Below are positions 5,139 to 57,392 of a stretch of 64,000 bases of DNA, one piece after another. Every line of letters starts with the position of its first letter. Position 1 is the first letter of the stretch. Origin of the DNA: an uncultured Acidobacteriota bacterium (GTDB lineage Bacteria; Acidobacteriota; Vicinamibacteria; Vicinamibacterales; JAKQTR01). The notes under the pieces were generated by a model. It had not been told where the DNA came from, ran no database searches, and saw only the letters and a program-made list of their open reading frames with translations. The translations under genes were made by a program, and so were the position numbers. The stretch is from positions 471,722 through 535,721 of the forward strand of contig CAWEJS010000002.1 in NCBI GenBank assembly GCA_963809475.1, in the 5' to 3' direction.

Positions 5139-5144
5139 GGCTGA

Positions 5145-6062
5145 TCACGGGCTCCGGCGCATCGAGTTCGAATCGGTGACGCGACGGCGGGCAGCCGCGC
5201 ACATCCGTTCACGCCACATCTGTGCCTCGTCGAAGACCCGCTCGAGCGGAAGCGCGGTGGCGGCGTGCGTCTTCATGTGGTCGAGCGCCCCGATCAACTC
5301 GTCCAGCGCGACGCGGATGTTGTCCGCGTTTGTCAGGCAGATGTCGCGCCAGATCTCGAACGAGCTGTCCGCAAGCCGGGTCGTGTCCACGAGTCCGGGG
5401 CCGGCAAGCTCGAGACCCGCGTCCCCCGCCCCTTCGCCAGCCACGCGCATCAGGGCCGACGCCGCCAGTTGCGGAAGGTGGCTGATGAAGGCCAGGACGC
5501 GGTCGTGCTCGGCTGCACTCATCACGTGCGGCTCGGCGCCGAGCGTCCTCACGAACGCGCACAGCCGCGCCAGGACCTCGGGCGGCGTGCCTCCCTCAGG
5601 CGTGAGCACCCAGGGCCGCGCCGAGAAGAGGTCGGCCGTCGCCGCGTCGATCCCGCGCGAAGCCGCGCCGGCAATCGGATGCCCACCGACGAACGTGAGC
5701 GATCCGCCCGTGCCGCGCGCCGCGTCGACCATGACCCGCTTCGTGCTGCCGACATCGGTCACGATGGTGGCCGGGGAGACGTGACGGGCCACCTGCCTGA
5801 CGAGCTCGACGTTCTGCCGAACGGGCGCCGCCAGGATCACCAGGTCGGCCCTGGCGACGCTGTCGAGTTGCTCCGACGCGACGTCAACGACGCCGCGATC
5901 CAGGGCCGTGCGAAGCACGTCAGCCCGGTCGATCCCGGCAATGGCGGTGGCAGGCCGTGCTCTGCGGATGCCCAGCGCGATCGATCCGCCGACGAGCCCG
6001 AGGCCGACGATGGCAATGCGTTCAAATTCGGCGCCAGCCACGCCCGAGTCGGCTTCACTCAT
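5145..6062 (-). CDS. tyrA: prephenate dehydrogenase
   Basis: An N-terminal Rossmann motif (IAIVGLGLVGGS) and GGHPIAG are present. Operon context supports the call. Confidence 0.85.
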   Translation of the reverse strand: MSEADSGVAGAEFERIAIVGLGLVGGSIALGIRRARPATAIAGIDRADVLRTALDRGVVDVASEQLDSVARADLVILAAPVRQNVELVRQVARHVSPATIVTDVGSTKRVMVDAARGTGGSLTFVGGHPIAGAASRGIDAATADLFSARPWVLTPEGGTPPEVLARLCAFVRTLGAEPHVMSAAEHDRVLAFISHLPQLAASALMRVAGEGAGDAGLELAGPGLVDTTRLADSSFEIWRDICLTNADNIRVALDELIGALDHMKTHAATALPLERVFDEAQMWRERMCAAARRRVTDSNSMRRSP

Positions 6063-7218: not shown

Positions 7219-7538
7219 CTGTCCGGGCCGCTGACTGGCGCCGGACCGGCGCGCCCGCCCTCGCGAGCGGTGCCGCCGGCCATCTCGAGCTGGCGCGCCT
7301 CGTCGATGATCCGCTCGAAGAGCCGGCCGATGGCCTCTTCCGTCAGCGGCCCGCCCAGGTTCGCCGTGATCGCGCGCGCGCGGCGCACGACCGCCGCCTC
7401 CCGGTCGGGTTCGTAGATCGGCGAACCGCGCTCCCGTTTCAGCCGGCCAATTTCGATGGCGCAGGCGGCGCGAGTGTTCAGCAGCGCCACGAGCTGCTCG
7501 TCAATCACGTCGATTCGCTCCCGCAGTTCGTCGATCAT
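7215..7538 (-). CDS. chorismate mutase (AroQ class)
   Basis: MIDELRERIDVIDEQLVALLNTRAACAIEIGRLK... is a typical CM type II helix. ATG 7538 overlaps the trpA stop (ATGA), and the stop overlaps the DAHPS GTG start (GTGA). Confidence 0.85.
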   Translation of the reverse strand: MIDELRERIDVIDEQLVALLNTRAACAIEIGRLKRERGSPIYEPDREAAVVRRARAITANLGGPLTEEAIGRLFERIIDEARQLEMAGGTAREGGRAGPAPVSGPDR

Positions 7539-8368
7539 GATTCCTCGCCCGCTGTCGCGCCTCGATCGGTCCCTTCGCCGAGCAGCCACCGCACGTGGCC
7601 CCGCACCCGTTCCTCCAGGTCCGGTTCATTTCCGGCCTCCGCGATGACGCTCACGATGCTGCTGCCGACAACCGCGGCGTCGGCCGAGCGGCAGACTTCG
7701 CGGACCTGATCCGGATGCGAGATGCCAAAGCCGAGCGCAACAGGCAGCTGGCTCTCCGCCCGGATCCGGCCGACCAGATCTCGCGAGCCGGGGGGCAGCG
7801 ACGCTCGCGCGCCAGTGACGCCGAGCCGGGAGATGGCGTACAGGAACCCGCTCCCGAGCGCTGCCGCCTCTTGGATCCGCTCGGTGCTGGTGGTCGGGCT
7901 GATCAGGAAGATCACGTCGATTCCGGCGCGCGCCAGGGCCGCGCGAGCCTCTCCCGCTTCTTCGATCGGGAGGTCCAGCACGAGTACGCCGTCGACGCCT
8001 GCCTTTGCCGCGATCTCGGCAAACCGTTCGATGCCGAGCCGGAAGATCGGGTTTGCATAGCTGAACAGCACCAGCGGCGCGCTGAGTCTCGGCCTGACTT
8101 GCGCGACGAGATCGATCACCGCTCCGAGCGTCGTGCCGGCCGCCAGCGACCGCTCCGCCGCACGCTGGATGACCGGGCCGTCGGCGACAGGATCGGAGAA
8201 CGGCACGCCGATCTCGATCACGCTCGCCCCGGCGGTCTCGAGCGCCACGAGAATCTCGCCCGAGCGATCGAGATCCGGGTCACCGGCGGTGACGTAGGTC
8301 ACAAGCTTCGGGCGTATTTGCAGGCGCAGACGATCGAAGGTGGAGGACAGGCGTGACATCATCAGCAC
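7535..8368 (-). CDS. trpA: tryptophan synthase alpha chain
   Basis: The TrpA family sequence reads through (VTAGDPD, IEIGVPFSDPVADGPVIQ). The start is GTG 8368, or ATG 8362/8359. Confidence 0.93.
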   Translation of the reverse strand: MLMMSRLSSTFDRLRLQIRPKLVTYVTAGDPDLDRSGEILVALETAGASVIEIGVPFSDPVADGPVIQRAAERSLAAGTTLGAVIDLVAQVRPRLSAPLVLFSYANPIFRLGIERFAEIAAKAGVDGVLVLDLPIEEAGEARAALARAGIDVIFLISPTTSTERIQEAAALGSGFLYAISRLGVTGARASLPPGSRDLVGRIRAESQLPVALGFGISHPDQVREVCRSADAAVVGSSIVSVIAEAGNEPDLEERVRGHVRWLLGEGTDRGATAGEES

Positions 8369-19237: not shown

Positions 19238-21457
19238 CTACTTCACCTTGACGATCTGATACCCGGTATCCGGCACGGTGCCGATGTAGTGCTCCGACTG
19301 CTTCGTTGTGCCATCCATCAGCCAGATCCAGACTTCGCCGTCCGACACGTTCCACCACAGGATGTCGGCCTTGGTGTTCCCGTCATAGTCGCCCGCGCCG
19401 GCGATACGGTAGTCCGTGTCGGGTACCGTGGCCACGTACGTCTCGCTGAGGCGCGCTGCACCGTTCATCGGCCAGATCCACACGTCCCCGTGCACGGTGT
19501 TCCACCACAGGATGCCGGCCTTCCCGCTGCCGTCGAAGTCCGCCACTGCCTGGATCTGGTACGTCGTGTCGGGCACCGTCCCGACGCAGGTCCGCGAGAG
19601 GCGCGACGTGCCGTTCATCAGCCACACCCACACGTCGCCCGCCGCGCCGTGCCAGACGATGTCGGCCTTGCCGTTGGCATCCAGGTCGCCCACGCCCTTG
19701 ATGACGTAGCCCGGGTCCACCGTGTCCACGTAGCCCTCGCTCGTCCGCGTCGCCCCGTTCATCAGCCAGATCCACACGTCGCCCACGGTCGCGTTCCGCC
19801 ACAGGATGTCGGACTTGCCATCGCCGTTGAAGTCGCCCGTCCCGGCGATGTCGTAGGCGGTGTCCACGGTCGCGACGTAGGTCTCCGCAAGAGGGGCGCC
19901 CGCGCTCATCGGCCAGTAGTAGATCATCCCGGTGGTCTTGTTCCGCCAGAGGAGGTCGGCCGTCCCGTCGCCGTTCTGGTCGCCGAGGCCGCGGATCTCC
20001 CAGTTCGTGTCAGCCACCGTCTGCACGTAGGCCGCCGGATCCATCGCCGCGCCATTCATCGGCCACAGCCACACGCCGCCGCCGGTGGCGTGTCGCCAGA
20101 GGATGTCGCTCTTCAGATCCCCCGTGAAGTCGCCGGGGGCCTGCGGCGGGTTCGTGGTATGCGTGACGTTCACCGTGATGGCGTCCGACACCGTTGTCGT
20201 GCCGATGGCCCTGACCTCGACGGCATGGTCGCCCGGGGCCAGCAACGAGGCGTCCCACGCGGCTTCCCAGAGCGCGGGATTCGCCGCAACCCGCGTCATC
20301 GGGTGCCACGTCGCGCCGCTGTCGATCCGGTAGGTCACCCCGCTGATCGTGCCCGAGTCGAAGACGAGCGCGCGAATCGGATTCGTCGTCGCATCCGGGA
20401 CGTCGTAGGCGTAGGGGTTGACCACGCCGGCGATGTACCGGTCAACGGGCGCCGTGATGAGCACGACCGGCCACGCGTTGGTGGACGGCGTGACCGACGA
20501 CAGGCCGTTGCAGTCAATCGCGACGAGACTGTAGTACGAGTTGCTCGATTTCCCGAGCGACGCGACGCTGTCGTAGCGGATGCCGTCACCGCTCATCAGG
20601 CCGGTGTAGCTGTCGCCATGGAACAGCGCCTGAGAGTACCGGTGCGTGTGGCCGTAGTCGTAGGTGGACGCCGAGTACGAGTCCAGCGCCTGGATGAAAC
20701 CCTGCTGACCGTAGAAGAGCCACGTGTCGCTCGACACGCCGGTGTCGGTCACCGGGTGATGCCCGAAGACCAGCGTCAGGGACGCGTCGCTGTTCGCCTG
20801 GAGTTCCTGGTTGATGAACGCCAGCTCGGTCGCGTCGAGCCCCGCGTTGTCGCCCCAGGGTCGTGTCAGGCTGAAGGCGGCGCCGTCGTTGCCGGCGGTA
20901 TTGACGCCGAGAAAGTGGTACTTCCCGAACGGGAACTGCCGTGTCCACGACTGCTGCGTCTGGCCGGTGGCCCGCCCCTGTACCGAGTTTGCGAGGTAGT
21001 ACGTGAAGTACCGATCGTTGTAGGCGTCGTGATTCCCCGGAAGGTCGTAGAAGAAGTCCGCCCCGGCGCCCGCGTTGGCCAGGATCGACTTGTACTCGTT
21101 CCATTCCTCCTGGTGCGGGCCGTTCGGCCAGCCGAGCCAGTTCCCATTCGTCGAGTCGGTCAGATCGCCCGTCGCGACGACGAACGCCGGGTTGATCACC
21201 GATCGGGCCGTCGTGACGAGCCACTGAAGCCGCGAAGAATCGTCCGTGCCCGACATCCCGATGTGCGGGTCCGACACCTGCAGGAACCAGAAGACCCGGG
21301 TGTTGTCGGCACTATAGAACGCGCCGTGAGGATTCCCCGCCTTGACAACGGCGCGAGAGGGGAACAGCACACACACGGCCAGGAGGAGTCTGATCACCGG
21401 GACTCTGAGCCGCCTCGCACAGGTCTCCATCTCGGGCCTCTCCTGTCGGTGGGTCAC
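19238..21457 (-). CDS. secreted calcineurin-like metallophosphoesterase fused to six FG-GAP/VCBS-like repeats
   Basis: A signal-like N-terminus is followed by QVSDPHIG, GDLTD and GNHD metallophosphoesterase motifs. The C-terminal 298 aa are six repeats of about 48 aa (GD-x-(N/D)GDGK-x-DILW-x-N...G-x-VW-x-W-x-MNG). Confidence 0.8.
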   Translation of the reverse strand: MTHRQERPEMETCARRLRVPVIRLLLAVCVLFPSRAVVKAGNPHGAFYSADNTRVFWFLQVSDPHIGMSGTDDSSRLQWLVTTARSVINPAFVVATGDLTDSTNGNWLGWPNGPHQEEWNEYKSILANAGAGADFFYDLPGNHDAYNDRYFTYYLANSVQGRATGQTQQSWTRQFPFGKYHFLGVNTAGNDGAAFSLTRPWGDNAGLDATELAFINQELQANSDASLTLVFGHHPVTDTGVSSDTWLFYGQQGFIQALDSYSASTYDYGHTHRYSQALFHGDSYTGLMSGDGIRYDSVASLGKSSNSYYSLVAIDCNGLSSVTPSTNAWPVVLITAPVDRYIAGVVNPYAYDVPDATTNPIRALVFDSGTISGVTYRIDSGATWHPMTRVAANPALWEAAWDASLLAPGDHAVEVRAIGTTTVSDAITVNVTHTTNPPQAPGDFTGDLKSDILWRHATGGGVWLWPMNGAAMDPAAYVQTVADTNWEIRGLGDQNGDGTADLLWRNKTTGMIYYWPMSAGAPLAETYVATVDTAYDIAGTGDFNGDGKSDILWRNATVGDVWIWLMNGATRTSEGYVDTVDPGYVIKGVGDLDANGKADIVWHGAAGDVWVWLMNGTSRLSRTCVGTVPDTTYQIQAVADFDGSGKAGILWWNTVHGDVWIWPMNGAARLSETYVATVPDTDYRIAGAGDYDGNTKADILWWNVSDGEVWIWLMDGTTKQSEHYIGTVPDTGYQIVKVK
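19241..20134 (-). repeat. coding tandem repeat (about 144-bp unit, 6 copies) encoding the FG-GAP-like blades
   Basis: Periodicity is visible in the translated sequence, and the recurring GACATCCTGTGG-type segments appear in the DNA. Confidence 0.7.
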
Positions 21458-35237: not shown

Positions 35238-36350
35238 GTGGACATCGTACCGTTCGTTGATCTCGCCGCTCATCATGCGCCCGTGCGCGCGGAGATTCAG
35301 GCCGCCGTCGAGAAGGTGCTGCAGCACGGCAAGTACATCCTCGGCCCGGAAGTCGAGTCCTTCGAGCAGGGCTTTGCGAAGATGGTCGGCGCGAAGCACG
35401 CTGTCGGGGTCGGCACGGGCCTCGACGCGCTCCGGCTGTCCTTCGAAGCGGCCGGCGTCAAGGCGGGCGACGAAGTCATTGTCCCCGGCAACACGTTCAT
35501 CGCGACGGCACTGGCGGTGTCGGCCCTCGGCGCGGTGCCCGTGCTCGTGGACTGCGACCCGGTGACGTACAACATCGACGTCAATCTGATCCGGCCAATC
35601 ATCACGACGAAGACGAAGGCGATCTGCCCGGTCCATCTGTACGGCCAGGCCGCCGACCTCGACGCCGTGATGGCCATCGCGGCCGAGTACGGCCTGAAGG
35701 TGATCGAGGACGCCTGCCAGGCCCACGGCGCACAGTACAAGCGCCGGGGCTGCGGGTCGATCGGCGACCTCGGGTGCTTCAGCTTCTACCCCGGCAAGAA
35801 CCTCGGGGGCATGGGCGACGGCGGCATGGTCACGACCAACGACGACGGGCTCGCGATGGCGGTGCGGCGGCGGCGCAGCTACGGGGAGGCGAAGAAGTAC
35901 CATCACGTCGAGAAGGGCCTCAACGCGCGCCTGGACACGATGCAGGCGGCAATCCTGAACGTGAAGCTGCCCCGCCTCGGCTGGTCGAACGACAACCGCC
36001 GGCGCGCCGCACGCGTCTACGAGCAGGGGCTGGCGGGAATCGCTCCGGTCGTCGTCCCACAGGGGCCGGCGGACGCACTGGCGCACATCTACCATCTGTT
36101 CGTCATCCGCACGCCGCGCCGCGACGAACTCCAGGCGTTCCTGAACACGAAGGGGATCCAGACCGGCATCCACTACCCGATCCCGATCCACAAGCAGCCG
36201 GCGTACGCGGAGCTGGCGTCGTCGGGTGGCCGCCTGCCGGTCACAACGACGATCGCGGACGAGATCCTGTCGCTGCCGATGTTCCCGGAGTTGACGGACG
36301 AGCAGATCGGCCGCGTCTGCGCGGCCATCGCGGAGTTCCACCGGGCCTGA
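35238..36350 (+). CDS. DegT/DnrJ/EryC1/StrS-family PLP-dependent sugar aminotransferase (WbpE/GnnB-like)
   Basis: The family pattern is present (ILGPEVESFEQGFA, CFSFYPGKNLG, with the PLP lysine in the YPGKNLG context). Confidence 0.88.
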   Translation: MDIVPFVDLAAHHAPVRAEIQAAVEKVLQHGKYILGPEVESFEQGFAKMVGAKHAVGVGTGLDALRLSFEAAGVKAGDEVIVPGNTFIATALAVSALGAVPVLVDCDPVTYNIDVNLIRPIITTKTKAICPVHLYGQAADLDAVMAIAAEYGLKVIEDACQAHGAQYKRRGCGSIGDLGCFSFYPGKNLGGMGDGGMVTTNDDGLAMAVRRRRSYGEAKKYHHVEKGLNARLDTMQAAILNVKLPRLGWSNDNRRRAARVYEQGLAGIAPVVVPQGPADALAHIYHLFVIRTPRRDELQAFLNTKGIQTGIHYPIPIHKQPAYAELASSGGRLPVTTTIADEILSLPMFPELTDEQIGRVCAAIAEFHRA

Positions 36351-36359
36351 TCGGAACTC

Positions 36360-36387
36360 GGGGCTCGGGACTCGGGGCTCGGGATTC
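36360..36387 (+). repeat. heptamer array GGGGCTC-GGGACTC-GGGGCTC-GGGATTC
   Basis: Four tandem 7-nt units (GGGRYTC) lie directly after the stop of the aminotransferase gene. Together they form four G3+ tracts separated by 3-4 nt. Confidence 0.8.
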
Positions 36388-36389
36388 GG

Positions 36390-36412
36390 AAATAGGGGCC
36401 TGGCCCCTATTT
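36390..36412. terminator. hairpin AAATAGGGG-CCTGG-CCCCTATTT between convergent genes
   Basis: A perfect 9-bp stem with a 5-nt loop overlaps the stop codon (36407-36409) of the minus-strand membrane-protein gene. It contains the recurring GGGGCCTGGCCCC core. Confidence 0.6.
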
Positions 36413-37591
36413 CGACAGGAGGGCGGAGAGCCACGGCACGCCGATCGTCGGAATGCCGTGCCAGACGGAGAGGTTGCCGAGGATCACCAGCGGCCAGAAC
36501 CAGCGGCTCTTCACGACCTGCGCGTTGAACGCGAACGCCAACGGCAGCAGCACGCGGGGCGCGGCGCCCGGGTATCCGCCCCACACCGGGAAGCTGAGCA
36601 GCGGCAGGAGGGCGCAGTAGGCCGCGCCGACGCGCCACCACGGGCTCCGCCAATCCCACCGAAGCGCCAGGTAGCCCGCCTGCACGGTGATCGCGATCAT
36701 CAGGGCGACGTTGTAGCGGCCAAAGGTATGCCAGCCGAACCGCCGCACGTCGCTGGCCACCTCGGCCCACTTCCCCACGTAGCCGGAGAACGGGACGGCG
36801 AAGCTGTCCGGGTTCGAGTAACTGAACGCGGGGTAGATCGACTTGACGTATGCCGCCCACAGGAGGAACGGCGCCGCCACCAGGCACGCCTGCCCGGCGA
36901 GCGCCAGGACGTCGCGCCGGGTGCGCGGGATCGCGCGAACCAGCAGCCCGCTCGCGAGGACGTTCGTCTCACGCGCGAGGCCCGCCAGCCCCATCAGCGC
37001 GGCCGCCAGCCAGGACCGGTTCCGCTCGGCGGCCCACACCGCGAGCACGATGATGACCATGCTCGGCCCCTCGAGCAGGGCGAACCGGAACGAACCCGCG
37101 AGACCGACGCCAAAGAGGCACCCGAACCATGGGACGAAGTTGCGGGCCCGCGTTGGCGGAAACCAGCGCAGGAGCAGCCACGCCAGCAGCAGCCACGCGA
37201 TGATGTTCTGCACCGCGTACGCCTTCAGGATCGACGCCGGCCGCCCGAGGCCGAGCAGGTAGGCGGTCCAGGCGAAGAGGATCCGCCGCGCCCGGTACGG
37301 CGGGTTGTCGAGGGCATGGTCGAGGCGCCGATCGCGGAGCAGCGGCACGACCGCCAGTTGCGCGTAGAACTGCCCGTCGTACCCCGAGGACTGGTAGTGA
37401 ATGACGTGGGGCGCGTCATAGACGGCCCGAAGCGCGGTCGAATCGAACTGGTCACCGAAGCAGATGAGCGTCGTGAATCCGGTGGTCCGCTGGTAGTACT
37501 GCGGCAGCGACGCGAGGAACGCGACCACGGCCGCCGCGTACATGAGCGCGACCGGCGCCTTCCACCCCGCCGGCCAGAGTCGCACCATCAC
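36407..37591 (-). CDS. polytopic integral membrane protein, function unknown
   Basis: The 394-aa protein has many hydrophobic segments. I recognise no catalytic motif. It lies immediately downstream (1-nt gap) of the ABC ATPase gene and convergent to the sugar cluster. Confidence 0.6.
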   Translation of the reverse strand: MMVRLWPAGWKAPVALMYAAAVVAFLASLPQYYQRTTGFTTLICFGDQFDSTALRAVYDAPHVIHYQSSGYDGQFYAQLAVVPLLRDRRLDHALDNPPYRARRILFAWTAYLLGLGRPASILKAYAVQNIIAWLLLAWLLLRWFPPTRARNFVPWFGCLFGVGLAGSFRFALLEGPSMVIIVLAVWAAERNRSWLAAALMGLAGLARETNVLASGLLVRAIPRTRRDVLALAGQACLVAAPFLLWAAYVKSIYPAFSYSNPDSFAVPFSGYVGKWAEVASDVRRFGWHTFGRYNVALMIAITVQAGYLALRWDWRSPWWRVGAAYCALLPLLSFPVWGGYPGAAPRVLLPLAFAFNAQVVKSRWFWPLVILGNLSVWHGIPTIGVPWLSALLSK

Positions 37592-43667: not shown

Positions 43668-44924
43668 CTATTCGTATCGCAGCGATTCGATCGGATCGAG
43701 GCGGGAGGCGCGCAGCGCGGGCCAGAGGCCGCTGAGGATCCCGGTCAGCATCAGGATCACGGTCGTCGAGATCAGCACGTCGGGCGTGAGGATGAGGTTG
43801 ATGTCGGTGTCTCCGGTCGGGTCGCCGATGAGGTGCGCGAGGAACGGCCTCCTGCCGGCGGCGTGCACCAGGACCCACGTGAGCGCCATCCCGGCGACGC
43901 CGCCGAACCCCGTGATGACGAGCGCCTCGAGCAGGAACTGCAGCAGGATGTGGCGGCGCCGTGCGCCGAGCGCCTTCCGCACGCCGATCTCCCGCGTGCG
44001 CTCCGTCACCGACACCAGCATGATGTTCATCACGCCGACGCCGCCAATCATGAGCGTCAGCGTCCCGACGAACACGAGCACGAGCTTCAGGCCCATGGTC
44101 ATCCCGCCGAAGATCCGCCGGATCTCGGCACTGTCGTTGATGGACAGGGCGCGATCGTCCCGCGGGTCGAACCGGTGCCGTTCTGCCAGGACGCCCCGCA
44201 CCTGCGTCATGCCCCGCTCGTGGAACGCCGGGGCGATGGTCTGCACGACGATGGTGTCGAGGTAGTCCTGGTGGAAGAGCTGCTCCGTCACCGAGTACGG
44301 GATGAAGACGCTCATCTTGTCGGGCCAGAAGTAGTTCGACAGCTGCGCCTTGTCCGTCAGGACCCCCACCACCTCGAAGGACAGCCCCCGGATCCGGATC
44401 GTCTGCCCGACGGCCGGGCTGTTGCCGAACAGCTTGAGCGCAACCTCGGTGCCCAGGAACGCCACGCGCCGCCGCCGTTCGACGTCCTCGGCGTTGATGA
44501 ACCGCCCGTCCGACGGCGTCTCGGTGCGCATGACGCCGTACTCCGGGGCCACCCCCCGCACGCCGGCCGACGTCGCCCGGCTGCCGTAGCTGAGGGGCAG
44601 CGTCTCGAAGATCTCGGGGCTGACGGACTTCACGAGGCCGAGTTGTTTCAGCGGCTCGATGTCGGCGTACTTGAGGTACACGCGCCGGCCCGCCCGCTCC
44701 CCGCCCGCCTGCATGCTGGTCTGGCCGCCGTAGATCACGGCGACGCCGTCGGAGAACGCGTTGCCGAAGCCGACGAACATCGCCCGGTGGAACCCGTTGC
44801 CGTACGCCATCATCGACGTGACGGTCACGATCCCCCACGCGATGCCGAGCATCGTCAGGCCCGCCCGGAACCGGTGGGCGACGATGGAGTTCCAGGCTTG
44901 GGAAACCGTCTCTCTGAAAAGCAC
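43668..44924 (-). CDS. MacB/FtsX-type ABC transporter permease (paralog 2)
   Basis: The GTG 44924 start gives (M)[30 protein letters not shown], parallel to the paralog 1 N-terminus. A periplasmic domain and a C-terminal FtsX 3-TM bundle follow ([14 protein letters not shown]). Confidence 0.88.
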
Positions 44925-45012
44925 GTGTCCCTCGTCGCGAGTCAGAACCGTCAGAAGCCAGGAGACAGGAGTCCGAATTCAGAATGATGGCCGCGTGGGG
45001 ACATCCATGATG

Positions 45013-45043
<31 letters not shown>

Positions 45044-45044
45044 T

Positions 45045-46367
45045 CTACGCTTCATAGCGTAACGCTTCGATCGGCGTCAGGCCCGCGGCCCGCCGCGCCG
45101 GGTACGTCGCCGCCGACACGCCGATCAGCGCGAGCGCCGCCACGGCGAACAGCCCGGTCCGCCACGTGACGATCAGCCCGGTGAACCGCTCGGGCATCGG
45201 GGCGAGGTTGACCAGGTCGCACAGCCCCATCCCGATCGCGAAGCCGATGAGCCCGCTCAGGCCCGTGAGCAGCAACCCCTCGGCGAAGAACTGCCACTGG
45301 ATGCGCGCGGCCGTGGCCCCGATGGCCTTCCGCACGCCGATCTCAATCGTGCGCTCCCGCACGGCCACGAGCATGATGTTCATCACGCCGATGCCGCCGA
45401 GGAGCAGCGTGACGATCGCCACCGCCAGGAAGAAATCGTCCATGCCCTCGATCATCTTGTCGAACATGACCGACTCGACGGCGGTGTTCCAGAAGCTGAG
45501 CGCCTCCGCGTCGGCCGGATCGAAGTCGTGGCGCTTCGCCAGGATCTGGCGCACCTCGGATTCGACGGGCCCCCTGGCCTCGAGACCGGCGAAGCTGATG
45601 AGGCCCTTCTCCCGGTCGATCATCTCGCGGATCTGAACCGTCACGTGCGGATACGGCGCGGCGATGATCGTCGAGACGCTGTCCTGGCTGTTCAGCAGCC
45701 CGGGCATCGGAAAGTCCTTGCGCGCCGTCTCGTACGGGATGAACAGCCGCCCGTCGTCCTGGCCGGTGTAGTTCGAGTCCTGCTGCTTCTTGCGGACGCG
45801 TCCGATCACGGTGTACGGCAGCCCGTTCACCGTGACGGCCATGCCCACGGGATCGCGGTCGGCGAACAACTGCTTCGACGCGTCGAACCCGAGCACGGCG
45901 ACGCGCCGGACTTCCTGGCAGTCCTTCTCGTTGATCGGACGTCCCCGGTCGACTTCGATCGTCCGCATGTACTGGTAGATGGGCCACACACCGCTCATCG
46001 ACGTGGCGCTCGAGTTGTAGGCGCTCTTCACCCGCAACCCGCCGCGGAGGATCTCGGGGCTGAAGTACTGCAGCAGCTTCGACTCGGCTTGCAGCGCCCG
46101 CACGTCGTCGAAGGTGAGCCGGATGGCCCGCCCCGCGCGCAGGCCGCCGGCCTGCAGCGATGTGCGGCCGTTCCGGATGATGACGATGTTCTTGCCCAGC
46201 TCCGCGAGGACCTTCTGGTTGCCTCTCGAGAAGCCCTCTCCCAGCGCCGACAGGAGGATGAACGAGATCACGCCCCAGGCGATGCCGAACATCGTGAGGA
46301 ACGAGCGGAGCTTGTTGGCCCGCAGGTTCGCCCACGTCTGCCAGAAGAGGTCCCTGATGAACAGCAT
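45045..46367 (-). CDS. MacB/FtsX-type ABC transporter permease (paralog 1)
   Basis: MLFIRDLFWQTWANLRANKLRSFLTMFGIAWG... shows the MacB-like periplasmic domain, and the FtsX domain carries GVRKAIGATAARI. Confidence 0.88.
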   Translation of the reverse strand: MLFIRDLFWQTWANLRANKLRSFLTMFGIAWGVISFILLSALGEGFSRGNQKVLAELGKNIVIIRNGRTSLQAGGLRAGRAIRLTFDDVRALQAESKLLQYFSPEILRGGLRVKSAYNSSATSMSGVWPIYQYMRTIEVDRGRPINEKDCQEVRRVAVLGFDASKQLFADRDPVGMAVTVNGLPYTVIGRVRKKQQDSNYTGQDDGRLFIPYETARKDFPMPGLLNSQDSVSTIIAAPYPHVTVQIREMIDREKGLISFAGLEARGPVESEVRQILAKRHDFDPADAEALSFWNTAVESVMFDKMIEGMDDFFLAVAIVTLLLGGIGVMNIMLVAVRERTIEIGVRKAIGATAARIQWQFFAEGLLLTGLSGLIGFAIGMGLCDLVNLAPMPERFTGLIVTWRTGLFAVAALALIGVSAATYPARRAAGLTPIEALRYEA

Positions 46368-46375
46368 GATGTGTT

Positions 46376-46403
46376 GAGTCCCGAGTCCCGAGTCCCGAGT
46401 CCC
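46376..46403 (-). repeat. heptamer array (GGGACTC)x4 on the mRNA-sense strand
   Basis: The plus strand reads GAGTCCC x4, perfect copies. The array fills most of the 44-nt spacer between the MFP stop (46412) and the permease 1 ATG (46367). The last unit ends 8 nt before the ATG. Confidence 0.9.
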
Positions 46404-46411
46404 GTCTGGAT

Positions 46412-47605
46412 CTACTGCAGCACGACCCGCTGCCCCTCGCTCAGCCCGCTGAGCACCTGCGTCTTCGTGCCGTTGCTCACGCCGACCTTGATGGGCCGCC
46501 GCTCGCGGTGGTTCTTCGCGCCCGGCACGTAGAGGTCCACCGAGGCATTGCGCTTCGTGTCGTACACGATGGCCGCCTCCGGGACGACGAGGGTCCGCTT
46601 GTGCTCCTCGAGGATGATCTCGGCGTTGGTCGTCATGTTGGCGAGGAGCTCGCCCGAGGCGTTGTCAATCGACACCTTGACCTCGAACGAGATCACGTTG
46701 TCCTTGTCGGTGCCCATCGGCGAGATCTGCGTGACCTTGCCGTCGAACTGCTTGTCACGGAAGGTCTCCACCTTGATGCGCGCCGGCTGGTTCAGCCGGA
46801 CCATGCCGATGTCGGCCTCGTCCACGTTGCCCTTCACGTAGACGCGGCTGATGTCGCCGAGCACCATCACGAGCGTCGCGTTCGCCCCGAGGTTCTGGAT
46901 GGACGAAACCGGGCTGCCGAGTTCGACGGGCCGCGAGAGCACCATCCCGTCGATAGGCGATCGGATGGTCGCGTTCGTGAGCTCCTCCTCTGCCCGCTCG
47001 ACGGACGCCTGGGCCGCCGCCACCGACGCCCGCGCCTGCGCCGTCTTCGCCTGGGCGATCCCGAGCTGCGTCTTGGCGGCCTGCTGCCGGTTCGCCGCCA
47101 TCTCGAGGGCGCTGCGGGCGTCGTCCAGGCCCTGCTGCGGCAGCAGCCGGTCGCCGAACAGCTTCTCGGCGCGCTCGAGGTTCCGGCGCGCGAAGGGCAC
47201 GTCGGGCCCCTCGGCTTCGACCTTGTTCTTCTCGAACTCCGCCTCCGCGGCCGTCACCGCCGCCTGCGCGCCGACGAGCGCCGCCCTCGCCTCGCGCAGC
47301 CGCGCCGCCAGGTTGTCCTTGTCCAGTTCGACGAGCACCTGCCCCACGGTCACCCGGTCGCCGACGTCGACCTTCAGTTCTTTGACGATGCCGTTCGCTT
47401 TCGACTTGATCTCGACCTTGGAGATCGGCTCGATGCGGCCCGTGGCTACGACCGATTTGGCCACGTCGCCGCGCTCGATCGCCGCAAGGCGTGCCGGGTC
47501 GATATCGCCACTGGACCCTCGGAGAGCCACCCACGCGGAACTGCTGACGATCAGCAGCGCAACCAGTACCCCCGCCCAGAAAAACCGCTTCTTCGTGATC
47601 TGCAT
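46412..47605 (-). CDS. HlyD/MacA-type membrane fusion (periplasmic adaptor) protein
   Basis: An N-terminal TM segment is followed by biotinyl-lipoyl-like, coiled-coil hairpin (ARLREARAALVGAQAAV...) and beta-barrel segments. Confidence 0.88.
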   Translation of the reverse strand: MQITKKRFFWAGVLVALLIVSSSAWVALRGSSGDIDPARLAAIERGDVAKSVVATGRIEPISKVEIKSKANGIVKELKVDVGDRVTVGQVLVELDKDNLAARLREARAALVGAQAAVTAAEAEFEKNKVEAEGPDVPFARRNLERAEKLFGDRLLPQQGLDDARSALEMAANRQQAAKTQLGIAQAKTAQARASVAAAQASVERAEEELTNATIRSPIDGMVLSRPVELGSPVSSIQNLGANATLVMVLGDISRVYVKGNVDEADIGMVRLNQPARIKVETFRDKQFDGKVTQISPMGTDKDNVISFEVKVSIDNASGELLANMTTNAEIILEEHKRTLVVPEAAIVYDTKRNASVDLYVPGAKNHRERRPIKVGVSNGTKTQVLSGLSEGQRVVLQ

Positions 47606-48179: not shown

Positions 48180-48239
48180 GGGGCCAAGCCCTTTATGGGG
48201 CCTGGCCCTTTTTCACTTTCTGCATAGGGGCCTGGCCCC
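48180..48239. repeat. three tandem copies of a GGGGCC(A/T)(A/G)GCCC(C) hairpin core
   Basis: The copies are GGGGCCAAGCCC (48180-48191), GGGGCCTGGCCC followed by TTTTT (48197-48213), and GGGGCCTGGCCCC (48227-48239). They lie between convergent genes, and the same core occurs at 36395-36407. Confidence 0.7.
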
Positions 48240-48249
48240 ATTTCCGTTT

Positions 48250-50638
48250 TCAGAAGGCGAGGGAGAGCCCGGCGTAGACGTTCCGGCCGGCGGCCGGGAT
48301 GAAGAGCGCCACTCCGCTGTCCACGTAGCCGAACGACGTGTAGCGCCGGTTCAGCAGGTTGTTCATCCGCAGGTCGAGGGCCCAGCGCCCCTTTCCCAGC
48401 ATCCCTGTCACGCGGACCGGCAGCGGCACCTTCGCCGCGGCGTCGACGGTCGTGTAGGAGGGATTCACCCGATCGGCGCGCGCCGTGTTGTCGAGGAAGA
48501 ACCGCCCGGCGTGCCGGAGTGCCATGGAGACCCGGCTCGCGCCGATGTCGGCGTGGGCGGACGCCGACGCCATCACGTCGGGGAACCCGGCCACGCGGTT
48601 CCCGTCGTAGACGGCCGTGCCGCCCTCGAAGTCGTGCTCCCGGTAGCGGACGAAGGTGTTCCGCGCGACGGACAGCGCCGCGTCCAGGCCGATCCGGGCC
48701 GGGAGGCTGACGCTGCCGTCGAACTCCAGGCCGCGGCGCCGGGACCGCGCGCCGTTGCCGTACACCGGCACGCCGTTGTCGTCGAGCGCGCCGGCGTAGA
48801 CGATCTCGTTGCGGAAGTCCATCCAGAACGCATTGGCGCGCAGGCGCCATCTCTTGCGCCGCCACGAGGTCCCCGCCTCGAGGTTCCACACGTCTTCGGG
48901 ATCGAGGATGGCCGGGGCCGTCGCATAGTAGTCCTGCGGATCGTAGAGGTTCCGGAAGAACGGCTCGCGCATGCCGCGGGCCGCGGTGGCGTAGGCGTCG
49001 CCGCCCGCGCCGAGCTTCACCACGACGCCGGCGCGCGGCAGCACGAAGCCGTAGGACCTCGTGAAGGCGACGCCCCTCAACCGGTCCTCGGACATCTCGT
49101 AGGTATGTCGCGAGAGCTGCAGCCCGGCGCTCAGCGTCACGCGTGGCGAAGCCGCCACCCGCGCCGACACGGCCCCGGTGGCGGTGTGCTTGGCCACCCG
49201 GTAGTCGTAGTAGCGGTGGTCCGGTTCGACGCCCGCCGGGTAGTACTGGGCCCAGGTGACCTCGCCGACGTGGTGCGCCCGGTGGAGGCGCCACTCCCCC
49301 GTCACGTCGAGGCCCACGCGCCCGAACTGCCGCGTCCACGACGGCACCCAGCCGGCGTCCCACTCGTCGACGTTCCGGCGCCGCACGAGGTCGCTGCGCG
49401 CAATCGCCGCGCCGTCGGAGCCCCGTGCATCGGGCAGGTCGTACTCGAAGAGCCAGCGCTGCCCGCGGAACTGGTCGTAGTACCCCGACCCCTGGAACGC
49501 GTAGATCGTCTGGCTGAACGTCGACTGATCGGAGAGCCTGACGTCGTGGACGAGCTGGTAGTGCGGCTGGAAGAAGTGGTCGGTCTCGCCGGGCCAGGAG
49601 ATCGGGTTCGTGCGCCGATCGCGACTGGCGTCGCCGGTGAGGCCCCCGTTCAGGGTCTCGCGATCGATGCCGCTGTACGCAAGGTGCGTCCGCTCGGGCC
49701 CGCCGAAGAACACCGCCCGCACGCGCGACCGCTCTCCGAACCGCGCCAGTGACACGTAGTAGTTCCACATGTCGGCCCACGACTGGTCGCGGTAGCCGTC
49801 GGTCGTCAGCCGCGAGTAGCGGGCCGAAAGGGCCCACGCGCCGTGCAGGAGACCGGACTCCCAGACGAGCGACAGCCGGCGCGTGCCGAACGACCCCGCG
49901 CCCGTCTGCATCGAGAACGCCGGCTGCACGGACGGCTGCGCGGTCGTGAAGTCGAGGGCGCCGCCGAGGCCCGAGAGCCCCGTCACGCCGCGTTGCACCT
50001 GCACGTCGCCCGTGGTGGCCAGGAAGTCGGCGAGGTCGATGAAGAACAGCTCGCCCGACTCGGCGTCGTTGAGCGGCGCGGCGTTCAGCATCACGCGGGT
50101 GCGGGCCTGGCCGAACCCCCGAATCGAGAAGTACGAGTAGCCGATGCCGTTGCCGCTGTCGTTCGTCGCGAACACGCCGGGCACGAGCTGCGCCAGCAGC
50201 ATTGCGGGATCCTGGCCCCAGTGCGCGTCGCTGATGGCCTGCCGCGGCACGTTCGAGAACGTCGCGGCGTCCGCCCCCTCGCGGGCGCGGCCGGCCGTCA
50301 CTTCGATGCGGTCGGACACGGTGACGATTGGCGCCAGGCGCACGTCGAGCTGGGTGCCCGGCCGATCGACCACGGCCCGCTGAACGTAGTAGCCGGGGCT
50401 ACGAGACGACCAGCGTCACGCTCCCCGCGGGGCCGGCATCGACGGCAAAGCGTCCGTCGCCGTCCGCGACGACCGACGTTCCGCGATCGGGAATCTCGAC
50501 ACGCGCGGCAACGGGCGCGCCGGTTTCGGCATCGACGATCCGCCCGGTGATGGTCAGGGTCTGCGCCGCGCCCGGGACGACCAGGGCGGGCATGGCAGCG
50601 AGGAAGGCCGCGACGAACAGGAGGCGCGCGAGTTTCAT
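48250..50638 (-). pseudogene. TonB-dependent outer-membrane receptor with N-terminal CarboxypepD_reg-like domain, apparent frameshift near 50399
   Basis: ORF 50399..50638 encodes a signal peptide plus TITGRIVDAETGAPV...SVTLVVS-stop. After a 1-nt shift the text continues SPGYYVQRAVVDRPGTQLDV... into the 707-aa plug plus barrel ORF, which ends ...YAGLSLAF. The large ORF has no signal peptide of its own. Confidence 0.75.
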
Positions 50639-50756
50639 CGTTCCCTACGCCGGTGTGACCCGGATCAGGTTCAAAGGGTGTGATCTCAGCCCCGCGTTGT
50701 GCGGGACACCCCTACGACTGTGGCTGGATGTACTGTGACCCAGGCGCGCGCCGCGG

Positions 50757-51190: not shown

Positions 51191-52501
51191 TCAGCCCCCC
51201 CAGATCGTCTGCGCGAGCAGCCACACGTTCAAACCCGCGATCAGAATCGCCACGGGCCACGCGAGCCCGCGCAGCCAGAGCGGCGCCACCGCGCGCCCCA
51301 TCTTCTTCCTGTCGCCCGTGAACATCACGAGCGGGAACACGGCGAACGGCAGCTGCAGACTCAGGATCACCTGGCTCAGGATGAGCAGCTTGCCGATCCC
51401 CCCGTCGCCGTAGATGACGATCGTGACGAGCGCCGGCACGATGGCGACGGACCGGGTGATGAGCCGGCGCAGCCACGGCCGCAGCCGGAGGTTCAGGAAT
51501 CCCTCCATCACGATCTGGCCGGCCAGCGTCCCGGTCAGCGTCGAGTTCTGGCCGGAGAAGAGCAGCGTCACCGCGAACAGCGTGCTCGCGAGCGTCGTGC
51601 CGAGGAGCGGGGCCAGCAGCTTGTGGGCGTCCGTGATGTCCGCCACCCATTCGTACTGCGTGCCGTGGAACGCGGCGGCCGACACAACGAGGATGGCGCC
51701 GTTGATGAAGAGCGCCGACATCAGCGCCACCGTCGAGTCGATGGTCGCGAAGCGGATCGCCTCGCCCCGCCCTTCGTCCGTGTCCGCGTACATGCGCGTC
51801 TGCACGACCGAGGAGTGGAGGTACAGGTTGTGCGGCATCACCGTCGCGCCGAGGATCCCCACGGCGATGTACAGCATGTCCGGGTTGCGCAGGATCTCGG
51901 CGGTCGGCACGAAGCCGTGCAGGACGCCCGCGAGGCTCGGCTTCGCCAGGACGAGCTCGATCGCGAACCCGCCGGCGATCCCGAGGATCAGCGTGAGCAC
52001 GATCCCCTCGAGGATCCGGAACCGGTGCTGCTGCACGAACAGGACGATGAGCACGTCGAGCGAGGTGAGGAGCACGCCGAAGACCAGCGGCACGCCGAAG
52101 AGCAGGCGGAGCGCGACGGCCGAGCCGATCACCTCCGCGAGGTCGCAGGCGGCGATGGCGATCTCCGCGAGCACCCAGAGCGCGATGGCCACCGGCTTCC
52201 GGTAGTACGCCCGGCAGGCCTGGGCGAGGTCGTAGCTCGTGCCGACGCCCAGCCGCACCGCGAGGGCCTGCAGCAGGATCGCCATCAGGTTCGACAGCAT
52301 GATCACGCTGAGCAGCGCGTAGCCGAAGCGGGCGCCGCCGGCGAGGTCCGTCGCCCAGTTGCCCGGGTCCATATAGCCGACCGCGATGAGGTAGCCGGGC
52401 CCCGAGAACGCGAGCAGCTTGCGCCAGAACCCTGCGCCCGCCGGGATCGGCACCGTCCCGTGCGACTCGGGCAGGCTCTTCCGGGATGGTTCCATGCCCA
52501 C
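51191..52501 (-). CDS. mntH: Nramp-family divalent metal (Mn2+/Fe2+) transporter
   Basis: The GYMDPGNWATDL motif, 11-12 TM segments and the 436-aa length fit. Confidence 0.92.
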   Translation of the reverse strand: MGMEPSRKSLPESHGTVPIPAGAGFWRKLLAFSGPGYLIAVGYMDPGNWATDLAGGARFGYALLSVIMLSNLMAILLQALAVRLGVGTSYDLAQACRAYYRKPVAIALWVLAEIAIAACDLAEVIGSAVALRLLFGVPLVFGVLLTSLDVLIVLFVQQHRFRILEGIVLTLILGIAGGFAIELVLAKPSLAGVLHGFVPTAEILRNPDMLYIAVGILGATVMPHNLYLHSSVVQTRMYADTDEGRGEAIRFATIDSTVALMSALFINGAILVVSAAAFHGTQYEWVADITDAHKLLAPLLGTTLASTLFAVTLLFSGQNSTLTGTLAGQIVMEGFLNLRLRPWLRRLITRSVAIVPALVTIVIYGDGGIGKLLILSQVILSLQLPFAVFPLVMFTGDRKKMGRAVAPLWLRGLAWPVAILIAGLNVWLLAQTIWGG

Positions 52502-52531
52502 GGCGGTACTTTACAACAGAGGCCGGAAGAA

Positions 52532-52556
52532 CCCCGAGTCCCGAATCCCGAGTCCC
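52532..52556 (-). repeat. heptamer array GGGACTC-GGGATTC-GGGACTC-GGGG (minus-strand reading)
   Basis: The plus strand reads CCCCGAGTCCCGAATCCCGAGTCCC. The array lies 31 nt upstream of the mntH ATG and about 30 nt upstream of the divergent tRNA-Arg gene. It holds three GANTC sites at 7-bp spacing. Confidence 0.8.
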
Positions 52557-52586
52557 GAACGTCGCTGTGGTATCATCGACTTCCGT

Positions 52587-52660
<74 letters not shown>

Positions 52661-52671
52661 CTCTCGTAATT

Positions 52672-52748
<77 letters not shown>

Positions 52749-54787: not shown

Positions 54788-55687
54788 TCACACGAGCGTC
54801 TTGAGATAGGCGACGCTCTGCTGGGTCAACTCCCAGTTCTGTTCGACGTAGTAGCTCTGGATCCCCGCCGCCTTCGCCGCCTTGAAGGTCGTCACCCAGT
54901 CGATGCTCCCCTTCCCGACCGCCACCTGCGGGCGCCGCCCCCCGCGTCCGCTGGCGTCCGGAGGCGGCACCGGGGCGTTCATGTCGATGTCCTGCAGGTG
55001 CATCGAGTTGAACCGGCCGGGGTACTTCGCGAAGTACTCGGCGCCGACCAGACCGGCGGTGATCGTGGACATCTGGAACTGGAACTTCACCAGCTTCGGA
55101 TCGAGCAGTTCCAGCAACAGGTCGTACACCCGCCTGCCCTCGACCATCGCGATCTCGAATCCCTCGTTGTGCAGGCCCTGTTGCATCCCGGCCTTTGCCG
55201 CCACGGCGGCGATCGCGTTGTACTCATCCGCCGCGTGCTTCACCTGGTCGAGGGTCGGCGAGTTCCCGCCGTTCCCGTCGCCGAGCGTCGCGGTGACCAT
55301 CTGGGTGATGCCCACGTCTTTCGCCCACGCGATGCTCTGCTGCTGGGTGGCCCTCAGCTCCTTCATGCTGAAGTGGCTGCTCTCGGCCTTCATGCCGTGA
55401 TCCGCGAGGATCGTCCGGACAGCCTTGCCGTCGGCCAGCGAAGCGAAGTCGGCGCCGTAGCCGATCGGCGAGCACAGCTCGAGCCGGGTCACGCCGATGC
55501 CGGCCATCATCTTGACGAAGGCCGGGAAGTCCTTCAGCATCGAGCGCACGGGATAGACCTGGCTCCCGATGGGCAGGCCCAGCGGGTTCGCACGAAGGCG
55601 CGGCGCGCGCGCGGCCATGAATCCGGTTGCTCCCGCGGCGGCTGCCCTCTCCATGAATTCACGTCTCGAAAGTCGAGTCATTGCCAT
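54788..55687 (-). CDS. Tat-exported sugar phosphate isomerase/epimerase (xylose isomerase-like TIM barrel)
   Basis: The twin-arginine leader is MAMTRLSRREFMERAAAAGATGF. The AP endonuclease 2/TIM-barrel-like body fits at 299 aa. Confidence 0.75.
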   Translation of the reverse strand: MAMTRLSRREFMERAAAAGATGFMAARAPRLRANPLGLPIGSQVYPVRSMLKDFPAFVKMMAGIGVTRLELCSPIGYGADFASLADGKAVRTILADHGMKAESSHFSMKELRATQQQSIAWAKDVGITQMVTATLGDGNGGNSPTLDQVKHAADEYNAIAAVAAKAGMQQGLHNEGFEIAMVEGRRVYDLLLELLDPKLVKFQFQMSTITAGLVGAEYFAKYPGRFNSMHLQDIDMNAPVPPPDASGRGGRRPQVAVGKGSIDWVTTFKAAKAAGIQSYYVEQNWELTQQSVAYLKTLV

Positions 55688-55709
55688 CTCTCCTGTCTAC
55701 TGTCTACAC

Positions 55710-57257
55710 CTACCAGCCTGCGCGGTACTCGCGCGTGAGGAACGCGTTCGCCTCGGGCACGTTCGTGATCTTCGCGGCGGCGGAGTCCCAGAGCAGCCGC
55801 CGCCCGCCGAGGCGCAGCGAAATGGCTGCCAGGTTGACCGCGTCGCAAATCGGTCCCGCCAGCTGGAAATCGCCGTAGCTCCGCGGCCCGCCCTTGAAGG
55901 CCGCAATCCACGCCGCGTCGCGCTCGGAGACGCGCGGGCGGCCGTCCCGTTCACCGCGGGCCCGGGGCTGGGGCGGCTCAGGTTCCGGCAGGTTGTTCGC
56001 CGCCCGGTAGGCGCGCATCTTTGCATCGGGGATCACCAGCGGGTTCTCGGCGCGGAAGCCTCCCAGAATCCTGCCCGCGTCGCCGACGAACAGCATCCCC
56101 TCCTCGGAGAGTTCCTTGTTCTCGGCCATCAGCTCCTCCGGCACGGGCGGCTTGATGCCGCCGTCGTACCAGAAGATGTCGAGCGCCGGACGGGAGCCTT
56201 TAGGAGCAAACCTCATCCGGATCGTGCACGCGGCCGGGAAGGAATAGTCGTTCCTGATCTGGATGCACACGTCGCCGTCCACCCCGCACACGTGGCTGGG
56301 CGTCGACTCGACGCTCATCGGCGCGTCCAGCTCGAGCAGCTGGAAGATCGGCCACAGGCTGTAGTGCCCCATGTCGGCGATGGACCCTCCACCGAACTCG
56401 AACCAGCCGCGGAAGTTCGTGTGCGTGTAGGCGGGGTGGTACGGGCGGTCGAGCGACGGGCCGAGCCAGAGCGTCCAGTCGAAACCCGCGGGAACCGGCG
56501 GCGTGTCCGTCGGCACGGTCGGGAACTGGGGCCACATCGGGCGCATGGACCAGTTGTGGATCTCGCGCAGGCTCCCGATGGCGCCGTTCTTGACCATGTC
56601 CAGCGCCTGCTTCTGGGCGGCGCCCTCGCTCGCGGGGAGGAAGTGGGTGGCCAGCTTCGCCGCGCGGGCGGCGTCGATGACGGCCCGCGCCTCCAGCAGG
56701 CGATTGGCCAGGGGCTTGTGCACGATCACGTTCATGCCCTTCCGCAGGGCCGCGATCGAAATGGCCGCGTGGGTGTGGTCCGGCGTCATGACCTTCACCG
56801 CCGTGACGTCCTTCTCCTTCTCCAGCAGTTCGCGGAAGTCCACGTAGGTCGCACACCCCGTCGACGGCTGTGTGCCCCGCTCCTTCGCGTAGTAGGCGTC
56901 CACGATCTCCTTGCCGACGTCGCGTCCGCCGGGCACGTGGTTGAAGCCCTCCCGCCACGTCGGGTTCTCGATGAGCCTCCTGATGCCGTCCCTGATCTGG
57001 TTCTTGCCCCATTCCAGGTAGTTGACGCCGTCCTTCTCGACGTCGCACACGGCGACCACCTCGACGTCCGGGCTGGCGAGGATGCCGCCGATCTCCCGGA
57101 TCGCCTGGGTGCCGAATCCGACGCATGCGAGCGTGATCTTGTCGCTCGGCGCCACGAACCCGGCGCCCCCCAGCACGCGTCGCGGCACGATCGTGAACGT
57201 GGCGGCGGCCGCCGCCGCGCCGGAGAGGAACTCGCGTCGATTCATTTCAGATGGCAT
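55710..57257 (-). CDS. Tat-exported Gfo/Idh/MocA-family oxidoreductase
   Basis: ATG 57257 gives MPSEMNRREFLSGAAAAAATFTIV (twin-arginine), then the Rossmann motif ITLACVGFGTQA. Confidence 0.8.
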   Translation of the reverse strand: MPSEMNRREFLSGAAAAAATFTIVPRRVLGGAGFVAPSDKITLACVGFGTQAIREIGGILASPDVEVVAVCDVEKDGVNYLEWGKNQIRDGIRRLIENPTWREGFNHVPGGRDVGKEIVDAYYAKERGTQPSTGCATYVDFRELLEKEKDVTAVKVMTPDHTHAAISIAALRKGMNVIVHKPLANRLLEARAVIDAARAAKLATHFLPASEGAAQKQALDMVKNGAIGSLREIHNWSMRPMWPQFPTVPTDTPPVPAGFDWTLWLGPSLDRPYHPAYTHTNFRGWFEFGGGSIADMGHYSLWPIFQLLELDAPMSVESTPSHVCGVDGDVCIQIRNDYSFPAACTIRMRFAPKGSRPALDIFWYDGGIKPPVPEELMAENKELSEEGMLFVGDAGRILGGFRAENPLVIPDAKMRAYRAANNLPEPEPPQPRARGERDGRPRVSERDAAWIAAFKGGPRSYGDFQLAGPICDAVNLAAISLRLGGRRLLWDSAAAKITNVPEANAFLTREYRAGW

Positions 57258-57392
57258 GTCGTCGGCCTCCACGAAAGCTGGAATCCTGGCCGGGAGGAGC
57301 CCCGCGCGACGCGGGCGCGCCCCTGCCTGCACGGAGGTTCATAGCACGATCGCCGTCTGATTGCACGGGCCGCTCGCGGAACCGGCCGGGCG

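Follow-up and report, generated by a model that had tools for sequence, protein, structure and literature searches.

Between the genes for a membrane-fusion/periplasmic adaptor protein (MFP) and a permease in an uncultured Acidobacteriota bacterium of the order Vicinamibacterales, the heptamer GGGACTC is repeated four times without a single error. What is a perfect array of this kind doing in the spacer of an operon, and how did it come to be there? It lies on the minus strand at 46377..46404 of the 64,000-nucleotide stretch of DNA that we analysed (hereafter the window), and it is solitary and G-rich on the mRNA sense strand. An earlier note, made from the letters alone, read it as a quadruplex motif in the mRNA, and offered translational tuning, a protein or methyltransferase target cluster and a slippage-prone contingency tract as possible roles. 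The reading at which we arrive, and to which we assign a probability of roughly 0.7, is that (GGGACTC)x4 is one locus of a genome-wide, phylum-spanning class of slippage-generated, stop-anchored repeats, here expanding a formerly tight junction between two genes.

The MFP–permease junction

The MFP gene (46412..47605, minus strand; 397 aa) ends in a TAG stop at 46414-46412, and its orthologues match the Pfam families BSH_RND/Beta-barrel_RND. Permease 1 (45045..46367, minus strand; 440 aa), assigned as MacB_PCD + FtsX through Pfam matches of its orthologues, starts at ATG 46367 and is followed by its paralogue permease 2 (43668..44924, minus strand; 418 aa; also MacB_PCD+FtsX). An ABC ATPase gene is absent beside this MFP–permease–permease operon (43668-47605, minus strand), as it is in the 21-kb orthologous locus L005. 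The DNA of the minus strand at the junction runs TAG (46414-46412) ATCCAGAC (GGGACTC)x4 (46404-46377) AACACATC ATG (46367), and this direct reading bears out the mRNA order UAG-AUCCAGAC-(GGGACUC)x4-AACACAUC-AUG that the earlier note had given. TRF reports the repeat at 46376-46404 with a period of 7, 4.1 copies and 100% matches, in agreement with a perfect array in the MFP/permease-1 spacer. The array takes up 28 of the 44 spacer bases, with the MFP stop 8 nt upstream of it and the permease-1 ATG 8 nt downstream.

The claim that no normal Shine-Dalgarno (SD) sequence is left before permease 1 is broadly correct. The site is weak, with an anti-SD duplex of −4.5 kcal/mol compared with a window median of −5.9 kcal/mol and −3.1 kcal/mol for a random control, but it is not exceptional, ranking 35th among 53 genes, and the SD is no better in orthologues without arrays. 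Watson-Crick structure in the RNA of the focal spacer is below that of shuffled sequences (z = +2.56). Simple scans of the operon spacers returned neither a sigma-70-like promoter nor a terminator. Readthrough of the UAG into permease 1 was rejected because UAG and AUG are 47 nt apart and out of frame. An origin as a mobile element or MITE was also ruled out: the spacer consists of 8 + 28 + 8 nt, and loci L126 and L140 have orthologous flanks (tagACCAGAC...).

A repeat class of period seven anchored to stop codons

The focal array has company. Three related arrays named in the earlier note are present at 45013-45043, 52529-52560 and 36351-36389, and every array in the window falls outside coding sequence, in DNA that is 88% coding, as the proposed dispersed intergenic repeat family would have it. 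The pattern GGGRYTCx3, allowing at most 2 mismatches, has 8 matches in the window compared with 0.04 expected from shuffles. The window's perfect repeats of three or more units, for periods of 5-12, all have period 7. The 64-kb window holds 3 G-rich heptamer arrays and 1-2 others.

The same period dominates 367 kb of Acidobacteriota loci, where we counted 126 period-7 arrays against 0, 6, 8, 9, 0 and 1 for periods 5, 6, 8, 9, 10 and 11, an excess that is at least eightfold over any other period within 5-11. In these loci, 71 arrays were picked up independently of the search pattern; 58 of them lie between genes though 76% of the DNA is coding, and 49 contain at most two G or C tracts. Heptamers that lack G tracts (GATTTTC, AATGCTG, AGCTTCC and CAATTCT are examples) are at least as common in the Acidobacteriota loci as G-rich ones and have a similar length distribution, with 2, 3, 4 and 5 full units in 11, 14, 18 and 3 arrays, respectively, a peak at four-and-a-fraction units and a sharp drop beyond. 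Because heptamers without G tracts are at least as common and of similar length, a quadruplex does not define the family; the feature common to its members is the 7-nt period. One locus from a Terriglobia MAG (L108) carries ~20 arrays of many unit families within 4 kb of mostly non-coding DNA (3830-7650).

A scan for GGGRYTCx3 across one genome per species gave at least 120 loci (L006-L125). Among the matches listed, 39 loci belong to Acidobacteriota and 24 to Lysobacterales, with further hosts in other Gammaproteobacteria, Planctomycetota, Actinomycetota (Streptomyces), Gemmatimonadota and others. Genes in these loci were called with our own GC3-based caller, which reproduced the three operon genes exactly, and distances to start codons are therefore approximate. 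Read along the G-rich strand, the 83 intergenic arrays with two neighbours among the matches listed lie a median of 15 nt from the gene on their 5' side and 125 nt from the gene on their 3' side. Of the 51 arrays among these matches that have the G-rich strand as sense, 31 are at most 10 nt past a stop codon, compared with 5.7 expected from uniform placement in the same spacer (0 of 20,000 simulations reached 31), whereas with the C-rich strand as sense the figure, again for the matches listed, is 2 of 35 compared with 3.8 expected. The tie to start codons that the earlier note proposed to score does not appear: among the matches listed, 3 of 48 G-rich arrays are near the following start codon compared with 4.7 expected, and the anchoring is instead to the preceding stop. 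The stop offset of the listed G-rich arrays has a median of 8 nt, and its commonest value among them is 3 nt (TGA-ctc-GGGACTC), which places the stop codon inside a degenerate first unit.

Among the matches listed, 43 of the 61 solitary G-rich arrays have the G-rich strand as sense (p = 0.002). Across the 153 G-rich arrays of the listed loci L006-L125 and the window, a complementary partner array was found 3' of the G-rich arm 35 times and 5' of it 0 times, and on both strands the resulting hairpins therefore open with their purine arm. As a solitary array whose G-rich strand is sense and which starts 8 nt past a stop, the focal one is a typical member of the family, and its closeness to the permease ATG would follow from the shortness of the ancestral spacer.

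Turnover at orthologous junctions and possible functions

The best permease homologues, up to 95% identical, were found in metagenomes of soil and sediment and in Vicinamibacterales/Acidobacteriota MAGs, and more than 40 contigs yielded the three-gene operon. Both intercistronic spacers are hypervariable among these orthologues, with the heptamer unit and its copy number differing at the same junction. Orthologous spacers range in length from 3-4 nt (taaGCCCatg in L143; also tagCCCgtg) to more than 200 nt of heptamer arrays, and the 3-4 nt spacers of some relatives suggest that the MFP–permease junction was ancestrally tight and translationally coupled. GGGRYTC occurs at orthologous junctions in 2-6 copies, and in most carriers its distance to the permease ATG downstream is conserved at 7-8 nt; GGGCAAG, which begins immediately past the MFP stop, reaches up to ~15 units; and (CAGTAGY)n, (TGAGTGA)n and (AAGAATC)n are each followed by a complementary array. 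The window and L001 share 92.6% DNA identity, yet their arrays differ completely in unit and number. Loci L134, L136 and L161, which are 98-99.4% identical, show whole-unit differences in both arrays, and the comparison of copy number between strains that the earlier note had called for thus supports a slippage-prone tract. Locus L126 has the 5' flank of the window (tagACCAGAC and tagATCCAGAC, respectively) and an array of five heterogeneous units, and beside it the perfect array of the window looks like a recently homogenised version of the orthologous tract.

In several orthologous spacers (L128, L129, L137, L150, L151, L154 and L149), heptamers that include a stop triplet (CAGTAGY, TGAGTGA and GCAGTAA) begin at or right after the gene stop and are followed by complementary arrays. 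With a stop-containing heptamer and a period of 7, three units give stops in all three frames.

Much of this behaviour has a precedent. Rehm et al. 2015 (PLoS One 10:e0144275, PMC4692102) described G-rich heptameric SSRs, GGGAATC in Xanthomonas and GGGGA(C/T)T in Nostoc, that are intergenic, have a mode of four units, form convergent inverted pairs and vary at the same site in close relatives; (GGGAATC)3GGG DNA formed a K+-dependent quadruplex in vitro (T1/2 50.4 °C), and no function was identified. Our arrays resemble these SSRs as tandem 7-nt units with a G3 tract that fit the heterogeneous pattern GGGANTN, in their dispersed and intergenic distribution, in their convergent inverted pairs and in the variation of length and sequence at the same intergenic site. 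Four units are common too in the listed arrays of all phyla taken together, which may reflect a similar preference. The focal (GGGACTC)x4 falls under the definition of head-to-tail heptamers of at least 14 bp with a G3 tract (GGGANTN), the window arrays are dispersed, multi-copy and over-represented in non-coding DNA, and relatives differ in length and sequence at the MFP–permease junction. The definition used for Xanthomonas calls for at least one GGGAATC unit, of which the focal array has none; its unit is GGGACTC, not GGGAATC, and is therefore a variant. GGGAATC accounts for 3 of the 924 units in the listed GGGRYTC-ascertained arrays, in which the search pattern excludes GGGAATC from seed units. 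Unlike the SSRs of Rehm et al., the arrays described here have the unit GGGACTC/GGGRYTC, the G-rich type is one of many heptamer families, there is no four-unit mode in Acidobacteriota, and the host, a member of the Vicinamibacterales (Acidobacteriota), is apparently new for the class. The in vitro quadruplex is a feature of GGGAATC; for GGGACTC a quadruplex is predicted. Our literature searches, which covered Mrazek et al. 2007 via summaries, found no description of such repeats in Acidobacteriota.

According to the summaries in PMC4679880 and PMC4692102, Mrazek, Guo & Shah 2007 (PNAS 104:8472) reported a preponderance of heptanucleotides among long SSRs, for which they suggested polymerase slippage; as summarised there, those SSRs share with ours the dominance of period 7, the intergenic position, the proposed slippage origin and the enrichment in large GC-rich genomes, and the anchoring to stops and the polarity of paired arrays are not described in these summaries. 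The cyanobacterial STRR and the TAACTGA heptamers found near start codons of Beggiatoaceae (MacGregor 2015, PMC4679880) are likewise tandem heptamers of intergenic or 5' regions, in two to several copies, for which post-transcriptional action has been proposed and function is unproven (PMC4679880). Unlike the stop-anchored G-rich arrays described here, they are AT-richer and lie mostly just upstream of starts.

Copy-number differences between near-identical strains, and the GACTC within each focal unit, would be expected if the array were a GANTC methylation cluster or an on/off switch of permease expression set by copy number, and we regard both as most improbable. The methyltransferase target of the earlier note finds little echo in the units themselves: among the matches listed, only 457 of 924 contain GANTC, orthologous arrays use GGGGYTC or GGGCAAG and many of them lack it, and the 208 GANTC sites of the window are close to the ~186 expected by our own estimate from base composition alone. 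The variation in copy number at the strain level is that of a contingency tract, but the layout does not fit one. The array lies outside ORFs and not between recognisable promoter elements, the operon spacers lacking a sigma-70-like promoter in our scans; a 7-nt step there alters no reading frame; and Rehm et al. (PMC4692102) saw no link of their repeats to surface or virulence genes.

A protein target could take another form, in which phased GGA/GGGA at 7-nt spacing serves as a platform to which an RNA-binding regulator of the CsrA, S1 or cold-shock type attaches at several sites, or as a 30S standby site after termination. GGA does recur at a fixed phase in the units, the sister (AGGAGTC)x4 amounts to four perfect SD cores, the arrays are stop-anchored on the sense strand, and MacGregor 2015 (PMC4679880) proposed such binders for the TAACTGA heptamers. 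The complete turnover of units at the same junction (GGGCAAG, CAGTAGY, CTTCTGR), however, leaves no single motif conserved, AT-rich or pyrimidine-rich arrays are frequent in the Acidobacteriota genomes studied, and no candidate binding protein was identified, which together make a platform of this kind very unlikely in our judgement.

The quadruplex with which the question began could act as a selected RNA switch. Four G3 tracts would fold over the landing site of the 30S subunit and repress independent initiation at permease 1, while a ribosome terminating at the MFP UAG, 8 nt upstream, would hold the first tract unfolded, with the outcome that permease translation would be coupled to MFP translation and kept below its level. 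The G3N1-7 x4 rule is formally satisfied by the focal array on the mRNA sense strand, as the earlier note stated, and such motifs are scarce, with 7 in the whole 64-kb window, of which heptamer arrays account for 3. The scarcity of Watson-Crick structure in the focal spacer and the weak SD of permease 1 suit a switch of this design, as do the K+-dependent folding of (GGGAATC)3GGG and, among the matches listed, the sense-strand bias, the median stop offset of 8 nt and a tract count that is most commonly four across all phyla (27, 56 and 21 arrays with 3, 4 and 5 G3 tracts). Predicted stability argues the other way, with G4Hunter scores of just 1.0 for the 28-mer and 1.25 for its minimal form and a quadruplex fold favoured by only 1.3 kcal/mol in ViennaRNA with G4 energies. 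Acidobacteriota alone show no four-tract mode among the matches listed (12, 10, 9 and 18 arrays with 3, 4, 5 and more than 5 tracts), and heptamers unable to form a quadruplex share a similar length distribution, so that the four-unit mode is weakened as a sign of selection for quadruplexes both by this subset and by the arrays without G tracts. Moreover, positions 6-7 of the unit (TC), which a quadruplex does not need, are conserved as strongly as the G tract among the matches listed. Orthologous MFP–permease junctions carry anything from no G3 tract to many, and four is not conserved. We therefore consider a selected switch unlikely; quadruplex tuning of permease translation is, on these models, possible at the focal junction, without support from conservation.

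We favour slippage at a stop-anchored site, a reading that sets out from the observed repeat class, its hypervariability, its bias to period 7 and its anchoring to stops. Heptamer arrays would arise, and be remodelled in place, by slipped-strand replication that favours a period of 7 nt, and would survive nowhere but in non-coding spacers, since a reading frame could not maintain a period of 7 nt. Starting 8 nt past the MFP stop, the focal array would have lengthened a probably very short, coupled MFP–permease junction to 44 nt. The resulting spacer RNA would combine little Watson-Crick structure and a weak SD with a moderately stable three-tetrad quadruplex over −36 to −9 relative to the permease start, and the likely consequence, if anything, would be looser coupling and lower permease translation relative to MFP. 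In our reading this lowered translation is a by-product; we do not put it forward as a function established to be under selection.

A purely mutational origin leaves unexplained that G-rich arrays abut stops with their G-rich strand as sense but not with their C-rich strand as sense (2 of 35 compared with 3.8 expected for the latter, among the matches listed), and simple slippage accounts neither for the 35:0 polarity of the arms among the matches listed nor for a peak in length near 30 nt whatever the G content. Since four is the commonest number of G tracts among the matches listed across all phyla, and all three G-rich arrays of the window have exactly four, there is room for selection based on structure. 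It is conceivable, if quite improbable, that the heptamer arrays are selected post-stop elements, or traces left by a mutational process linked to the stop boundary, and not neutral products of slippage. An RNA structure (quadruplex or hairpin) acting as a gate to re-initiation or shielding the 3' ends of mRNA would fit the former, and expansion driven by R-loops where the ribosome cover of the transcript ends would fit the latter.

Taken singly, the focal array adds an unremarkable case to a repeat class already described, and its value is that of a data point. Acidobacteriota, a major soil phylum, have a rich form of the heptanucleotide repeat, in which unit families are many, inverted pairs occur and arrays turn over even among near-identical strains. 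The anchoring to stops, the sense bias, the arm polarity and the G-independent lengths offer handles on why 7-nt repeats accumulate, a question since 2007. The arrays provide variable markers for strain typing and are likely trouble spots in short-read assembly.

The inverted pair and other arrays in the window

Just after the permease-1 stop lies the (AGGAGTC)x4.4 array (45013..45043, minus strand), which is rich in purines and serves as the 5' arm in an inverted pair of heptamer arrays. Its 3' arm, 40 nt downstream (44975-44940), is the degenerate complementary array GGACTCC TGTCTCC TGGCTTC TGACGGT TCTGACTC (44940..44975, minus strand), and the two are predicted to form a long RNA hairpin, the region 44900-45070 folding at −76 kcal/mol (z = −4.85). 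The purine-arm-first layout seen at 44940-45043 is common in the heptamer family, and L001 keeps the 3' arm alone at the permease-1/permease-2 junction, as (CTTCTGR)x5. The array itself is real, but the ATG just past it was rejected as the start of permease 2, as it opens a 9-codon ORF only; the paralogous N-terminus begins at GTG 44924, after GAGGGA, and the array therefore stands at the 5' end of a ~120-nt spacer. The mini-ORF (MDVPTRPSF*, 44978-45007, minus strand) lies in the loop of the heptamer hairpin with its ATG 8 nt past the last AGGAG, and is probably fortuitous since the orthologues L001 and L005 lack it.

The REP/BIME of enterobacteria are structured 3' UTR or intercistronic elements that can set the relative expression of neighbouring cistrons, and the inverted heptamer pair at 44940-45043 resembles them. 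REPs, however, are built of conserved palindromes in place of tandem repeats, and the focal array lacks a complementary partner.

On the plus strand at 36351..36389, the array TCGGAAC TCGGGGC TCGGGAC TCGGGGC TCGGGAT has four G3 tracts, directly follows the TGA of the gene at 35283-36350 (plus strand) and has a terminator-like hairpin on its 3' side. A GGGGCCTGGCCC(C/T) hairpin with a T-rich tail is repeated at 36395-36417 (as AAATAGGGGCCTGGCCCCTATTT at 36395), 48197-48209 and 48227-48239, and may be a repeated terminator or a REP-like element. The array GGGACTC GGGATTC GGGACTC GGGGTTC (52529..52560, minus strand) lies between the minus-strand gene 51191-52501, with its start codon near 52495-52501, and a tRNA-Arg at 52587 (plus strand). 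This tRNA belongs to a tandem tRNA-Arg pair (52587-52748, plus strand; anticodons TCG and CCG) whose members are 11 nt apart, and the units GGGATTC and GGGGTTC of the adjoining array are similar to the tRNA T-arm sequence GGTTCGAATCC, probably by coincidence. A weak heptamer array, (GTAGACA)x2 GGAGAGA (55687..55707, minus strand), directly follows the stop of the gene at 55710-57332.

Rfam has no family at any of the window's arrays. Elsewhere in the window it places a TPP riboswitch (RF00059, 72.3 bits) at 50625-50723 on the minus strand, upstream of the minus-strand ORFs 50399-50638 and 48250-50373. TRF also marks tandem repeats of 147-150 nt at 19316-19880, ~75% identical and in about two copies each, which probably encode repeated protein domains.
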